Assembly: GCA_963797095.1 (NCBI GenBank) | Contig: CAWCNY010000001.1 | Coordinates: 96,001-160,000 of the forward strand | Length of the DNA stretch: 64,000 nucleotides | Direction of reading: 5' to 3' | From: an uncultured Chloroflexia bacterium | GTDB taxonomy: Bacteria > Chloroflexota > Chloroflexia > QHBQ01 > JADMIH01 | In this document: piece after piece, positions 9,590 through 17,153 of the stretch | Numbering within the stretch: the stretch's first letter is position 1 | How the letters are laid out: each line of letters opens with the position of its first letter | Program-made: the position numbers and the translations under genes | Notes under the pieces: model-generated | Seen by the model: the letters and a program-made list of their open reading frames with translations, nothing else | Told to the model about the DNA's origin: nothing | Database searches by the model: none

Positions 9590-9663
9590 GGGCGGTTAGC
9601 TCAGTCGGCTAGAGCGCGTCGTTGACATCGACGAGGTCGGGGGTTCGAGCCCCTCACCGCCCA
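9590..9663 (+). tRNA. tRNA-Val(GAC), CCA not encoded
   Basis: Acceptor stem GGGCGGT/ACCGCCC-A, D arm TAGCTCAGTCGGCTAGAGC, anticodon arm CGTCG-TTGACAT-CGACG, T loop GGTTCGAG. Confidence 0.96.
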
Positions 9664-12467: not shown

Positions 12468-12672
12468 TCATGAGGGGTCGATAGTAAAGCACTTATAGTA
12501 AACGGTGCATCAGAAGAGGCTCGGAAGAGCCTCTTCTGCTTGGCCCTCGCGCACAAATCCCAATCGATCTCGTGTCGAACCTCTGATCGCCCTATGGCCA
12601 CCTAATTGCATATTATGATTGACTCTCACCCATACGCGTGCTAAAATAGTAGTGATAGCGAGAGGGAAAGCA

Positions 12673-13308
12673 ATGGGCGAGCACATCGGTGGGCGACGTT
12701 TACGCGCTGCGGAAGGGTCGCGCTTCTATGTCGACCTGTTACGTGCGGCGGGGTTGGCTGTTGTCCTGGGCCTCATAATGGAGGCTTTGCTGGTAGTCGG
12801 TGGTCAGGAACCCGCCAATCTCACCAGTCTTCTCGATAACGGCCTGTGGCCTTTGCTGGTTTGTATGACGCTTGCCGTAGGTCAGGCGATTTCTTCTGCC
12901 AACCCATCCACCGCGGGTACATTTTCCCTCTTGATCACCCCTCTGGCGTTCCTGGTCGCCAAAATCGCCCCAAAAGGCGTGCGCGATCTCCTGGCAGGCG
13001 TCTCCCTTGGAAACTACCTCTCTGCCGATCTTCTTCTGGAAGCGGGATTGCGTGCTATTGAATATGCTGTGCTGGCGGCAGTTCTCGCCTACTTCTGGCG
13101 GCAACAAGGGGCAGGCATATTAATGCATCTTGGCCTGGGCCTGGGAATTGGTGTTCTGTTCGGCCTCTTTATCGCGGCCTTTGTATCACCGCCCTCTTTC
13201 CTCAACTGGGTTGAGGCGGAGGTGGTCTTTCCTACCGGCTGCGCCTTGATCGTCTACGTGTCGCAGACCCCAACCCAATTGTTACCAGACGACGATATGC
13301 TTACCTGA
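12673..13308 (+). CDS. Hypothetical multi-pass membrane protein
   Basis: About 6 hydrophobic segments; RBS GAGGG before ATG 12673. Confidence 0.7.
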   Translation: MGEHIGGRRLRAAEGSRFYVDLLRAAGLAVVLGLIMEALLVVGGQEPANLTSLLDNGLWPLLVCMTLAVGQAISSANPSTAGTFSLLITPLAFLVAKIAPKGVRDLLAGVSLGNYLSADLLLEAGLRAIEYAVLAAVLAYFWRQQGAGILMHLGLGLGIGVLFGLFIAAFVSPPSFLNWVEAEVVFPTGCALIVYVSQTPTQLLPDDDMLT

Positions 13309-13351
13309 AAAGGCGAGCAAACACAGAATACCTTTCATGCCGGAATCGGGT

Positions 13352-13397
13352 AAAACAAAAGACCCGAACAGTCCTTGCGGATCGTCCGGGCTTTTGT
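13352..13397. terminator. Bidirectional intrinsic terminator
   Basis: ACAAAAGACCCGAACAGTCC-TTGC-GGATCGTCCGGGCTTTTGT hairpin with A/T tracts on both sides, between convergent units. Confidence 0.8.
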
Positions 13398-13648
13398 CCT
13401 TCAAGAGGTCTGCAAACTGAGCAGGCGCGCCACCTGAACCGAAGTCCCTGTGAAGTCCACCTTTCAATGGACCTGCGACCCGTACTCACATAACCGATGA
13501 GCCGTCTCCGAAGAGCGATCTCTCACGACCCCCGTCTCCGGTGCGTTCCCGGCGAACCGTTCACGCGCTCCGGCGGGTGGTCCGGTACTTCTCTCTGCGC
13601 CGTCGAAGCGGCTAGCCGTCTGTACCGCAGTCCCTGTAGTTCCGAAGT
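13352..13648 (-). ncRNA. Candidate structured non-coding RNA (~300 nt), family not recognised
   Basis: Own consensus promoter upstream and terminator downstream, no credible ORF, several UUCG/GAAA-capped stems and 5'/3' end pairing. Confidence 0.7.
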
Positions 13649-13654
13649 AGCTTG

Positions 13655-13683
13655 ATTATAGAGCGGCTCCAACTCGCTGTCAA
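13655..13683 (-). promoter_or_regulatory. Perfect sigma70 promoter driving the candidate ncRNA
   Basis: Minus strand TTGACA (13683-13678), 17 bp, TATAAT (13660-13655). Confidence 0.88.
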
Positions 13684-13754
13684 TGCCCATCCTCCAAAGT
13701 TTTCCACATCCGTGCAACCCCTGGAAGACCGGCATTGGCAGCTTGCAATAGTGT

Positions 13755-15131
13755 CTAGTTCGTGATGTCGCTGGCTCCGGAGGGCCACGCCTGCAAGGTC
13801 AGTGTCAGGTCCTGGTGCTGACCATCCCGAACGATAGTGAGGGTAACTTTGTCGCCGGGCTGCTTGTTGTTCAGGTAGCTGGTCAGGTCGCTGACCGCCC
13901 CTACCTTCTGACCGTCGATAGCTACGATTATGTCTCCTATCTGAGTGGTTGAGGTAGCTCCGGGTTGGCCTGTGCCTCCCTCGATACCCGAGATAGTAGA
14001 AGCCTTGAGTCCTGCCTGGGCAGCGGGGCTATTGGCTGTGACATCCATTACCAGCACGCCCCGGCTCACCGGCAGATTGTATTCCTGTTGTAGATCCTGG
14101 CTGATCTCAAGCCCTGCGATACCGATCCATGGCCTTTGTACCTGGCCGCCCTGCTCGAGCTGGCTCAGCAGTGACTTTACCTGGTTGATAGGTATAGCCA
14201 GTCCCACTCCGGTGAAGCCTTCTACCGGGCTTTCGATCATGGTGTTGATGCCTATTACTTCACCTTCGCTATTGAGGAGCGGTCCGCCGCTATTGCCGGG
14301 GTTGATTGCCGCATCCACCTGGATCAGGCCGTTCAGCGACCTGCTGCCGGTGGATCCTGCATCAGTTCGGTTCAGGCCACTCACGATACCCGACGATACG
14401 CTCTGATCGAGGCCGTAAGGGTAGCCTATGGCGATCACCTCGTCTCCCACCTGTGCGGTGGACGAGTCGCCCAGCGTTGCAGGCACCAGCAGGTCGCTCG
14501 GGGCGTCAACCTTGATCACCGCCAGATCGTCCTGCGGCGCGGTTCCTACTACTGTCGCGTCGTACTCACTGCCGTTGGAAAACTCCACCTTGATCGATGT
14601 GCCATTGTCGATCACGTGGTTGTTGGTGACGATGTAGCCGTTCGTATCGATGATTATGCCTGTGCCTGTGGCTTCGCCGCTGGCCGCAAACCTGCCGTTA
14701 CCGCTGCGCACGATAGAGGTAATCCGCACTACGGACGGTGATACCTTCTGGTATACACTGCCGATGGTGATCGTGTTGCTCTGTGCCACCGTCTCTGAAC
14801 TGCCGCTCGTGGCTATTTCGCTATTGCTGGCGGTCGATGTCGGAGCTGTAGCCACCGCATTGGAGTTCGCGTTGGTTGCCAGCATGACGGCCTCGGCTCC
14901 CGCGCCGCCCAGCACTGTTCCGAGTACGAGGGCACCGGAAACCATGAGGCCGAGCACAAGCGGTTGCTTCTTGCTCTGTTTCTGTGGGTGTATGATTGCG
15001 GCTTCTTCATGGTGTTCCGGCATGTATGGCCGTCGAATATAGTTCGGCTCCAGGGGGGTGGTTTGTGGCCCCCCTGAGCCGGTATTGCTGTAAATCTCGT
15101 TCTGAGTATTTTGCGTGTTATCGCTGTCCAT
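13755..15131 (-). CDS. htrA: HtrA/DegP-like S1C serine protease with PDZ domain and N-terminal TM anchor
   Basis: TNNHV, DLAVIK, AINPGNSGGPL catalytic triad motifs; C-terminal PDZ. Confidence 0.95.
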   Translation of the reverse strand: MDSDNTQNTQNEIYSNTGSGGPQTTPLEPNYIRRPYMPEHHEEAAIIHPQKQSKKQPLVLGLMVSGALVLGTVLGGAGAEAVMLATNANSNAVATAPTSTASNSEIATSGSSETVAQSNTITIGSVYQKVSPSVVRITSIVRSGNGRFAASGEATGTGIIIDTNGYIVTNNHVIDNGTSIKVEFSNGSEYDATVVGTAPQDDLAVIKVDAPSDLLVPATLGDSSTAQVGDEVIAIGYPYGLDQSVSSGIVSGLNRTDAGSTGSRSLNGLIQVDAAINPGNSGGPLLNSEGEVIGINTMIESPVEGFTGVGLAIPINQVKSLLSQLEQGGQVQRPWIGIAGLEISQDLQQEYNLPVSRGVLVMDVTANSPAAQAGLKASTISGIEGGTGQPGATSTTQIGDIIVAIDGQKVGAVSDLTSYLNNKQPGDKVTLTIVRDGQHQDLTLTLQAWPSGASDITN

Positions 15132-15439: not shown

Positions 15440-15877
15440 ATGATGCGAACAGTTTGCAAATCGAAGATTCATGGGGCAACCGTCACGGAAGCCAACCTCA
15501 ATTACGTAGGTAGCTGCACCATCGATCCCACCCTGATGAAAGCCGCCAATATTGTTCCTTACGAGTGGCTTCACGTGGTCAACGTCAATACAGGCTCTCG
15601 CTTCCAGACCTATGCTATACCGGGCGAAGCAAGCTCAGGCATAATCGCTCTGAATGGGGCTGCTGCCCGCCTCGGGCACCCCGGCGACAAAGTGATCATC
15701 ATGTGCGCGGCCTCTATCACCGAAGAAGAGCTTACAACGTTTCGCCCGCACCTGGTTTTCGTGGACGACCACAACCGGATAATCACCCCTACTGTAGGGG
15801 ACCGCTCCTGGAACCTTGACGACCTGGGCGCGGAATCGGAGATCAATGACGCTCTGCGCGAGATGTCGCAGGCGTGA
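15440..15877 (+). CDS. panD: Aspartate 1-decarboxylase
   Basis: KSKIHGATVTEANLNYVGSCTID (G-S autocleavage site), RFQTYAI, NGAAAR. Confidence 0.96.
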   Translation: MMRTVCKSKIHGATVTEANLNYVGSCTIDPTLMKAANIVPYEWLHVVNVNTGSRFQTYAIPGEASSGIIALNGAAARLGHPGDKVIIMCAASITEEELTTFRPHLVFVDDHNRIITPTVGDRSWNLDDLGAESEINDALREMSQA

Positions 15878-15953: not shown

Positions 15954-17153
15954 ATGAATGATGACCAAATCCAAAGTTCGATATCTAAGAGCCGCAATCT
16001 CAACACTCGGCTCATACATGCTGCCCACGAGGCCAACTCAACTGCGGCTGTCAGCCCGCCTATATACCAGACCAGCACCTATCGCCTTGCCTCTCCTGAG
16101 GAGGGAGCCGAGATAGCGCACGCCACCGCCCCCGCCGAGTTCTACACCCGGTACGGCTCGCCGAACAACAAGCAGGTCGAGCTGATGCTGGCGGCGCTGG
16201 AAGGCTCGGAGGGGGCGCTTGCCATCGGGTCGGGGGCGGCGGCTATCACGGTTGCGCTGATGTCCAACCTGGCTGCCGGGGATCATGTCATAGCGCAGAA
16301 CGTCCATTACACTTCGGCTATGACCCTGCTGACGTCCACTCTCCCCCGGTACGGGGTGGAGGTGACGATGGTGGACCAGACCGACATTGACGCGTTCGCA
16401 TACGCGCTTCGCCCGAACACGAAGGTTATCTACACCGAATCGCCTACCAATCCTACTATCGCCCTCACGGACCTGCGTGGTACTGCCGATCTGGCCCACT
16501 CGGTTGGCGCGCTGGCGATTACCGACAATACCTTCGCATCCTCGTTCAACCAGCAACCTCTCGCGCTTGGCTACGACCTGGTGTTGCACAGCGCCACCAA
16601 GTACCTGAATGGGCACGCCGACGTGACGGCGGGTGCGCTGATGGGGTCACGCGAACTGATCGACCGGGCGTGGGATTGGATGAGGGTGTACGGGCAGGTG
16701 CTGCACCCGTTTGAGGCGTGGCTGCTGCGGCGCGGGCTGATTACATATCCCCTGCGGATGGCCGTTCACAATTCGAATGCGCTGGCGGTGGCCCGGGCCC
16801 TGGAAGCGCACCAAGGGGTTGAGAGGGTGTATTATCCCGGTTTGGCGTCGCACGCGCAGCATGAGCTTGCGCTGGCGCAGATGCCGGGTGGGTTCGGGGG
16901 GATGGTGTCGTTCGAGGTGAAGGGCGGGTTCGACGCGGTGTACCGGCTGATCGGGCGCACGCAGGTGTGCGTGCTGGCGGTTAGCCTGGGCGGGGCAGAG
17001 TCGCTGATTACGCACCCGGCCTCTATGATCCACTCGCGGCAATCGGACGAAGAGCGCGAGGCAGCCGGGATCTCGCCGGGGCTGATACGGTTGTCAGTTG
17101 GGTTGGAGGCCGCCGAGGATATTATCGCGGACCTGGACCAGGCGCTCAGTTAG
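15954..17153 (+). CDS. PLP-dependent trans-sulfuration enzyme (cystathionine gamma-synthase/methionine gamma-lyase family)
   Basis: PPIYQTSTY, YTRYGSP, ESPTNP, DNTFAS, HSATKYLNGH, VSLGGAESLI, LIRLSVGLE. Confidence 0.93.
   Translation: MNDDQIQSSISKSRNLNTRLIHAAHEANSTAAVSPPIYQTSTYRLASPEEGAEIAHATAPAEFYTRYGSPNNKQVELMLAALEGSEGALAIGSGAAAITVALMSNLAAGDHVIAQNVHYTSAMTLLTSTLPRYGVEVTMVDQTDIDAFAYALRPNTKVIYTESPTNPTIALTDLRGTADLAHSVGALAITDNTFASSFNQQPLALGYDLVLHSATKYLNGHADVTAGALMGSRELIDRAWDWMRVYGQVLHPFEAWLLRRGLITYPLRMAVHNSNALAVARALEAHQGVERVYYPGLASHAQHELALAQMPGGFGGMVSFEVKGGFDAVYRLIGRTQVCVLAVSLGGAESLITHPASMIHSRQSDEEREAAGISPGLIRLSVGLEAAEDIIADLDQALS

Follow-up and report, generated by a model that had tools for sequence, protein, structure and literature searches.

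Does the region of roughly 300 nt that lies on the minus strand beside an htrA-type protease gene of an uncultured Chloroflexia bacterium encode an RNA, and if so, of what kind? The region belongs to a 64,000-nt stretch of DNA, referred to as the window, from a genome that is 93% complete and is designated G000. A first-pass annotation, made from the letters of the window, had proposed a stand-alone, densely structured non-coding RNA (ncRNA) and had suggested either a new class or a divergent relative of the RNA polymerase-binding 6S and Ms1 RNAs. The analysis presented here leaves little doubt that the locus is a genuine stand-alone structured ncRNA gene, with its own promoter, its own terminator and a conserved fold, and that it is an expanded paralogue within an order-specific family of small RNAs (sRNAs). 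This family is multi-copy, apparently undescribed and, among the genomes searched, confined to one order of soil bacteria in the GTDB class Chloroflexia. The coordinates of the features are collected in Table 1.

The perfect minus-strand TTGACA-17-TATAAT promoter claimed by the first-pass annotation was confirmed at every consensus position. It is one of five promoter-like sites between 12500 and 15500, where shuffled sequence is expected to give 1.3, and the others are imperfect. G000 carries 35 perfect sites of this kind against ~0.2 expected by chance on our own base-composition estimate, so the organism clearly uses consensus promoters. Transcription is predicted to begin at an A located 7 nt past the -10 element, which opens the ACUUCGG 5' end common to the whole family; the 5' ACUUCGGAAcUACAGGGA is kept in 8/8 long forms. 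The strong terminator placed earlier at 13397-13352 was likewise found, as an A-tract, a 12-bp stem with one A.C mismatch, a GCAA loop and a U-tract that pairs back onto the A-tract, and it was unlisted by a simple terminator scanner because of the internal mismatch in the stem. It is kept with covariation in the family (21 pairs, 12 compensatory, in 14 short forms). The absence of an open reading frame (ORF) led by a ribosome-binding site also held, in that no conserved ORF was present among 8 homologues and the longest ORFs varied in frame and position. Folding of a 306-nt stretch gave a minimum free energy of -126.1 kcal/mol compared with -113.6 +/- 4.3 for shuffles (z -2.95), and 0/100 shuffles were as good.

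A BLASTN search among Chloroflexota relatives found long homologues in which compensatory changes are present, as the first-pass annotation had expected of a real RNA. With the 351-nt locus as query against 41 related genomes, full-length matches were returned only in G017 (83%), G015 (72%) and G014 (70%), and 22/41 genomes gave any match, many of them via the terminator alone. The loci matched revealed a wider family, whose basic member is ~95 nt long and consists of a helix P1, a short P2 of 4-5 bp capped by UUCG, a linker and a 21-bp A-tract/U-tract terminator hairpin. The promoter layout reads ccCTTCCa, ~10 nt, GGATGTGnAaAAC, 15 nt, TTGAC, 18 nt, TATAcT, 6 nt, ACUUCG, a consensus drawn from 20 family promoters of which 3 rows come from the unpublished genomes G021 and G022. 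The conserved 3' hairpin comprises an A-tract, CCCGGAyGnUCC, a 4-5-nt loop, GGAyuGUyyGGG and a U-tract, and the RNA body, ACUUCG..GGUUCGCC..GGAGGAAC, is itself conserved across the family. In an alignment of 14 short forms (A1), 88.8% of cells were paired compared with 37-53% when slid, and 17/31 pairs showed double changes compared with 8.0 +/- 1.8 in shuffles, 0/500 of which were as high. This alignment and the covariance model R1 exclude the unpublished genomes G016, G021 and G022, which are included in the genome tallies (BLASTN, R1, class sample and panD search).

The window RNA was compared with the family feature by feature. The promoter pattern (TGTGnAwAAC 15-16 nt before TTGAC, 18 nt, TAtAmT) is present at 13708-13655, and P1 is present, formed by the 5' ACUUCG and a 3' strand of GRAGG type immediately ahead of the terminator. 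The conserved 3' hairpin is matched by R1 at 13441-13350. Only the body departs, being ~250 nt instead of a ~40-nt body with a single UUCG-capped P2. Since the GGUUCGCC apex is nevertheless kept, at the tip of the long arm of domain I, the RNA was filed as an expanded variant and not as a typical member. In G000 the exact promoter (box, 15 nt, TTGAC, 18 nt, TATAMT) occurs at 5 loci, all driving family RNAs. Five short paralogues of G000 lie at C1:213152, C3:1060743, C4:451457, C4:543091 and C5:90120. The novelty claimed at the outset was thus borne out with respect to Rfam 15, in which the RNA is absent, and had to be given up with respect to an isolated RNA, since it is a member of a multi-copy sRNA family.

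With respect to distribution, R1 detected 10 copies in G000 and 4-16 copies in 25/25 other genomes of the genus (22/22 when the three unpublished genomes are left aside), and all 26 genus genomes thus carry the family; the window itself holds a single member. Matches were obtained in 36/40 genomes of the order. Over a class sample, which was a draw, 23/121 genomes matched at E<=1e-5, all of the window's own order, and 0/92 genomes from 12 other families of the class did so. A loose first motif scan gave 511 matches. A promoter-pattern scan of 185,579 species genomes returned at least 116 stretches; among the 80 matches listed, 46 were titled Chloroflexia, Chloroflexota or Chloroflexi metagenome-assembled genomes, and these carry the RNA, while the matches in Firmicutes and Patescibacteria held no family RNA. 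The fetched loci contained 79 distinct family members, and an ORF was called downstream of 64 of them, 32 co-oriented and 32 convergent; this tally used crude longest-ORF calls, with 15/79 members lacking a called neighbour.

Several further observations were made on family loci. A more diverged member in G000 (C5:90050-90180; L161 551-680) combines the same box with a TTGATT/TATACT promoter. Its length is ~75 nt, its first hairpin differs, its terminator is capped by GCAA, and an OmpR-type response-regulator gene follows ~75 nt downstream; in L113, too, this body type was seen ahead of a response-regulator gene. Family genes are clustered 3-4 within 4-9 kb, with protein genes interleaved, at L168 (G007 C24:6500-17000) and L169 (G005 C23:50500-56000). 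Two L169 copies (4286 and 2209) are near-identical over ~100 nt, with ~10 differences mostly past the terminator, a similarity that points to a recent event of duplication or conversion. Several family promoters are immediately preceded by tandem heptanucleotide repeats (L002 ~1900-1945, L013 and L007), the units being ACTGACA (~6 times), GGTGGTC, GTGAAAC and CCCTAAC (3 times each).

The fold of the long RNA was derived from eight aligned long forms, those of G000, G017, G015, G014, G004 and G018 and two distinct metagenome sequences. The metagenome pattern scan had given 3 contigs with the long form, two of them identical over the RNA, and a ninth long form (G041) was left out of the alignment. 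RNAalifold mis-paired the long arm when applied to all eight sequences, and the five closest sequences gave the better and cleanest model, with 79 pairs of which 21 were compensatory. The first 19 nt are invariant bar one position. Inside P1 and P2 the insert of ~215 nt forms two domains with roughly 10 helices, so that the overall shape is a stalk bearing two multi-arm domains. The stems CGGUAC/GUACCG with GCCG..CGGC, the long nested arm, CUC-UUCG-GAG, the GNRA hairpin and GGAC-UUCG-GUUC, all listed earlier, agree with the comparative data. Two others do not: in place of GCUCA/UGAGU, the conserved partner of CUCA is an upstream UGAG, and the local CAGGUG/CGCCUG hairpin was not retained. The exact register of 5'/3' pairing given by the first-pass annotation was also abandoned, the homologues keeping CUUCGG/UUGAAG, CUACAG/yUGUAG and, as the closing helix of domain I, GACUG/CGGUy instead.

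P1 of the short forms, which is homologous, shows double changes at 4/6 pairs, and P2 carries a compensatory change in G004 (CUAC/GUAG to AUAC/GUAU). The loop of the GNRA hairpin in domain II (AGGUCCAUU-GAAA-GGUGGACUU in the window copy) is GCAA in relatives. Across the eight long forms 91.4% of cells were paired compared with 32-50% when slid. Double changes were present at 19/65 pairs compared with 10.0 +/- 2.0 in shuffles (0/500 as high), a control that ignores relatedness and uses a structure derived from the very sequences tested. G.U outnumbered A.C among 395 cells (55 vs 13), an excess that speaks for the minus strand being the one transcribed, although the count is partly circular in that the structure was predicted on that strand. 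Indels among the long forms are not in threes.

How a ~95-nt RNA may have become one of ~295 nt is indicated by the genomic setting. In all the other loci with a long form, panD and a Cys/Met PLP-enzyme gene run divergently from the RNA, and htrA is absent from the homologous loci of other genomes. Because panD adjoins the RNA elsewhere and htrA lies between them here, we conclude that htrA was inserted between RNA and panD; the position downstream of htrA, by which the RNA was first described, is thus incidental to this genome, and the conserved neighbour is panD. Synteny with htrA was considered and rejected, htrA and the downstream 229-amino acid ORF being present only at the window's own loci. 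This ORF (12619-13308, plus strand) is the next after the RNA, converges on its terminator and has no Pfam match; at the matching position G017 has instead a 148-amino acid response-regulator receiver gene, also convergent. A panD search through the genus gave a match in 18/26 genomes. The forms of the RNA found there differ in size (Table 1), and the series of 84, ~175 and 277-296 nt at one locus leads us to conclude that the long RNA arose there by growth of P2. At the remaining panD loci no family RNA was recognised by patterns, and four of these hold a panD paralogue that is 50-54% identical.

Table 1. Features of the RNA gene and its neighbours in the window, forms of the RNA at the panD locus of related genomes, and housekeeping RNA candidates of G000 (positions with a C prefix refer to contigs of G000, all others to the window).
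Feature	Position	Strand	Remarks
Predicted transcript, ~295 nt	13350..13648	minus	A at 13648 to U-tract ~13356-13350; both ends predicted
Sigma-70-type promoter TTGACA-17-TATAAT	13655..13683	minus	12/12 consensus positions
Upstream box GGATGTGGAAAAC containing TGTGGAAAA	13699..13711	minus	ends 15 nt before -35; spacing 15-16 nt family-wide
Distal upstream promoter element CTTCC	13723..13727	minus	about -80; consensus ccCTTCCa in 20 box-aligned family promoters
P1, 5' strand CUUCGG	13642..13647	minus	pairs with UUGAAG 13399-13404; 93.8% of cells paired, 8 sequences
P2, 5' strand CUACAG	13634..13639	minus	pairs with UUGCAG 13410-13415; one mismatch in window copy
Domain I, closing helix GACUG/CGGUU and three arms	13492..13632	minus	RNAalifold, 5 sequences; compensatory changes in every arm
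Domain I, arm 1: CGGUAC..GUACCG enclosing GCCG/CGGC hairpin	within 13492..13632	minus	
Domain I, arm 2: long nested arm tipped by retained family apex CGG-UUCG-CCG	within 13492..13632	minus	
Domain I, arm 3: UGAG..CUCA with CUC-UUCG-GAG apex	within 13492..13632	minus	
Domain II: closing helices, GNRA-capped hairpin, GGAC-UUCG-GUUC hairpin	13419..13487	minus	RNAalifold consensus columns 165-235
3' hairpin and intrinsic terminator	13352..13400	minus	-27.2 kcal/mol; R1 57.2 bits, E 2.4e-11
htrA-type serine protease gene	13755..15131	minus	Pfam Trypsin_2 4e-36 and PDZ; outside RNA gene
panD (aspartate decarboxylase)	15440..15877	plus	conserved divergent neighbour of long RNA
Cys/Met PLP-enzyme gene	15954-17153		after panD
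panD-locus form, 84 nt			G024
panD-locus form, ~175 nt			G002; with unrelated insert
panD-locus form, 277-296 nt			G000, G017, G014, G015, G018, G004, G041
panD locus, promoter cut by contig end			G001
RNase P RNA candidate	C3:144530-144902		69.3 bits, full length, under 100-bit cut-off
6S RNA candidate, full length	C5:51445-51627		42 bits, E 9.4e-7, just under 46.4-bit cut-off
SRP RNA	C2:371769-371868		73 bits
tmRNA	C6:160403-160749		161.3 bits

The family promoters are further marked by the upstream box, whose 15-16 nt spacing is constant at 5 sRNA promoters of G000. TGTGGAAAAC occurs 30 times in G000 compared with 7.3 expected and the 13-mer GGATGTGGAAAAC 10 times, and only 6/93 TTGAC-18-TATAMT sites are preceded by such a box at a distance of up to 32 nt. 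The f2 family has the box 4 nt before -35, and in f3 both positions are filled, one helical turn apart. In the promoter of the basic ~95-nt member, the DnaA-box-like element precedes -35 by one or two turns of the helix. DnaA boxes follow the consensus TTWTNCACA, and we take the 9-mer TGTGGAAAA within the box to fit it. TGTGGATAA and TGTGGAAAA lie 25 nt apart immediately upstream of dnaA. Our best guess is that DnaA would be the binder of the box, with an UP-like element or another activator as alternatives. TGTGGAAAAC was also seen 4-5 nt upstream of -35 at two promoters, C2:169083(+) and C2:410109(-), which carry GAAC-N4-GTTC, an SOS (Cheo-box-like) operator, in their spacers or starts; the box thus occurs outside the family as well and may act more generally, as a UP-like or activator element. 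Elsewhere in G000, four DnaA-box-like 9-mers lie within 70 nt at C6:341302-341370 (TGTGGAAAA twice, TGGGGATAA and TGTGGATAA), far from dnaA (C2:768667-769149), and this cluster could be an oriC or a titration site; the extremes of cumulative GC skew are elsewhere on the contig, and no clusters of at least 4 strict boxes within 400 nt were found in G000.

The explanation that we favour is that the expanded panD-linked paralogue acts as a trans-acting structured RNA and that the family is co-regulated via the upstream box, and to this explanation as a whole we assign a probability of about 0.55. A consensus sigma-70 promoter would start, and an intrinsic terminator would end, a ~295-nt RNA. Within one subclade of the genus, helices were added to the panD-linked copy at P2 to give the ~215-nt two-domain fold, with the promoter, 5' end, P1, GGUUCGCC apex and 3' hairpin being retained through the expansion. 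P1 and the 3' hairpin may serve as a common module for stability or termination, possibly for protein recognition, and the expanded domain would be the trans-acting payload for a protein or ligand, not a linear antisense seed. All family members would be co-regulated in transcription through the common box. Transcription, abundance and trans action of the long RNA are what we infer from these features, and the proposed mode of action, in which the structured RNA works in trans by binding a protein or ligand, is put forward tentatively, at rather less than even odds.

A number of points weigh against this explanation. The start, end and abundance of the long RNA are predictions from sequence. 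The long form comprises no more than 9 distinct sequences (those from 7 genomes of a single genus and 2 metagenome sequences), and because these are related the shuffle controls overstate the support. The middle of the 8-sequence alignment is poor, and the closing helix of domain II in G000 fits the consensus less well than do those of the relatives. Near-complete pairing of the RNA disfavours a classical seed, yet indicates no specific protein; the analysis yielded no candidate partner, and neither Hfq nor CsrA was found in G000 at its 93% completeness. The DnaA reading rests on the consensus and on the two boxes upstream of dnaA. Finally, half of the members have a co-oriented gene within ~300 nt downstream, as judged from crude ORF calls, and for those members read-through effects are possible.

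The strongest competitor, although in our view unlikely, is that the family comprises base-pairing sibling sRNAs that are antisense to mRNAs through family-specific seeds (for example the 5' CUUC or the Shine-Dalgarno-like GGAGG) and answer to one regulator. Sibling sRNA families under one regulator include Qrr1-5 of Vibrio, csRNA1-5 of Streptococcus (CiaR), LhrC1-5 of Listeria and OmrA/B. Like these, the family described here has several stand-alone paralogues of ~100 nt per genome, some in tandem, with a single promoter type, a similar terminator and diverged bodies, and, as in sibling families, the promoters of the paralogues within a genome have a regulatory element in common. Shine-Dalgarno-like GGAGG/GAAGG and complementary CUUC are present in nearly all members. 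However, these candidate seeds pair with each other in P1, where they covary, hardly any conserved single-stranded stretch is left, and UUCG and GNRA loops make poor kissing loops. Base-pairing would have no need of ~215 nt of conserved multi-helix fold, and no Hfq was detected, as stated above. Unlike the known sibling families, to which it has no sequence relation, being negative in Rfam, the present family has a distinctive build: its bodies are nearly fully paired without an evident seed, the sequence of its terminator hairpin is conserved order-wide, and one paralogue has grown to ~295 nt.

A bolder proposal goes beyond the favoured explanation, and we regard it as improbable. It holds that a new class of large complex ncRNA, comparable with raiA, OLE and ROOL, has evolved from a 95-nt sRNA by the addition of ~10 helices and has taken on a new protein-binding, ligand-binding or catalytic function, and that the whole family (~10 genes per genome) is a DnaA-driven regulon through the box at -55. 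If true, such a regulon would link a group of small RNAs with the replication cycle.

It is also quite improbable that the loci act as DNA-level cassettes, each made up of a DnaA box (or a site for another factor), a strong promoter and a bidirectional terminator, which would titrate an initiator, affect local supercoiling or the organisation of domains, or terminate convergent genes, with the RNA being a by-product. The most conserved parts are indeed the promoter to about -80 and the terminator, the box equals 9-mers upstream of dnaA, and the A-tract/U-tract symmetry would suit bidirectional termination where a convergent gene is faced, as it is by half of the members. Against this, P1, P2 and ~10 insert helices keep their pairing by compensatory changes and with many G.U pairs, which points to selection on RNA and not on DNA, and the sequence of the body is itself conserved.

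A cis-acting leader or attenuator, riboswitch-like in controlling read-through downstream, is very unlikely. The co-oriented ORFs, mostly 10-320 nt downstream, are what such a leader would require; in one cluster every sRNA precedes co-oriented genes, and in both loci viewed (L161 and L113) the diverged body type is followed by a response-regulator gene. Half of the members, and the long form in the window and in G017, nevertheless face a convergent gene, which speaks against a cis leader; moreover, no conserved alternative anti-terminator pairing was present, and the terminator is a 21-bp hairpin of perfect type in all members.

The divergent 6S- or Ms1-like RNA of the first-pass annotation, binding RNA polymerase, has to be given less credence still. 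What recommends it is a stand-alone, abundant-looking RNA with a strong promoter, much structure and a size of ~300 nt, which is similar to the length of Ms1. The 6S model (RF00013) nevertheless had no match at E<=10 in 13250-13800, nor had any other RNA model beyond the spurious one described below, and the rod with an open-promoter-like bubble at its centre is not present, the fold being two multi-arm domains on a stalk that descends from a 95-nt two-hairpin RNA. A better, full-length 6S candidate lies separately on contig C5. That the locus encodes a small protein, or that its structure arose by chance in an intergenic spacer, is hardly credible: sense-strand ORFs of 46-70 codons can be drawn, but their frame, start and length differ among the 8 homologues and several cross the terminator, the indels are not in multiples of three, helix substitutions are compensatory, and two window ORFs tested gave no Pfam match.

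Comparison with known RNA families was consistent with the family being undescribed. At gathering thresholds, the sole match of Rfam 15 in the whole window was a tRNA at 9590-9663, and at E<=10 the region 13250-13800 gave only a spurious mir-3927 match over the promoter (18 bits, E 1.9). On 9 family loci only a weak ctRNA_p42d match (30 bits, cut-off 50), which falls on the terminator of one body type, and a spurious microRNA match were obtained. As the first-pass annotation had anticipated for an RNA that is none of these, candidates for the canonical rnpB, ssrS, ffs and ssrA were located elsewhere in G000, and the RNase P RNA, tmRNA and SRP RNA models had no match at 13250-13800. A group I intron or spliced insert was rejected, there being no match to Intron_gpI or another ribozyme and the R-like string lying in a local UUCG hairpin. 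A phage or mobile origin was likewise set aside, since the pattern of promoter plus 5' end had 0 matches in viral contigs. The 24-nt terminator core is not a general terminator of the REP or uptake-sequence type, given that G000 contains just 2 near matches to it, both of them sRNAs. Literature searches at the level of titles and abstracts gave no description of such a family or of a Chloroflexota sRNA family.

Weinberg et al. 2010 (PMC2864571) present Chloroflexi-1 (RF01698) and pan (RF01749) as structured RNA candidates from Chloroflexi. They resemble the present RNA in being structured RNAs of Chloroflexi, and pan is tied to pantothenate genes as the long RNA lies beside panD; the long RNA, however, is divergent from panD and not in its leader, and neither model had a match in the window or in the 9 family loci.

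Other large structured RNAs offer a parallel in architecture. The raiA motif RNA, OLE, ROOL and GOLLD are large structured bacterial ncRNAs with their own promoter and terminator and with no function assigned. The long RNA resembles them in being a stand-alone gene with a covarying multi-helix fold, with loops of the UUCG and GNRA types and likewise without a known function. Unlike them, it has no Rfam match other than the spurious one above, its range is far narrower (7 genomes of one genus and 3 metagenome contigs), and its origin from a small sRNA of the panD locus can be demonstrated. The growth series at the panD locus documents the accretion of helices from a small to a large RNA, which has rarely been done in bacteria. 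To our knowledge almost nothing has been reported on riboregulation in Chloroflexota, and an order-wide multi-copy family of unusually uniform build from promoter to terminator provides a handle for finding both a regulator and a partner. The DnaA-box-like element offers a testable link to small-RNA transcription, and the long RNA, being compact with ~10 covarying helices, should lend itself reasonably well to structure determination. For the present, its impact is limited by a narrow distribution and by the lack of a functional clue.

A bacterial Y RNA of the YrlA type was considered for the window RNA and rejected, since it has no tRNA-like match and the only TROVE gene of G000 lies on C2 with tRNA-like elements of its own adjoining. 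This Ro60/TROVE gene (C2:1277668-1278558, 142.9 bits) is far from any family member examined. Beside it (C2:1277668-1283700; loci L025 and L028) are two tRNA-like elements of ~120 nt, which scored 45 and 42 bits with the tRNA model, were not called by ARAGORN and are candidate YrlA-type Y RNAs. Adjoining these elements, at least 21 tRNA genes are arrayed over ~3 kb.

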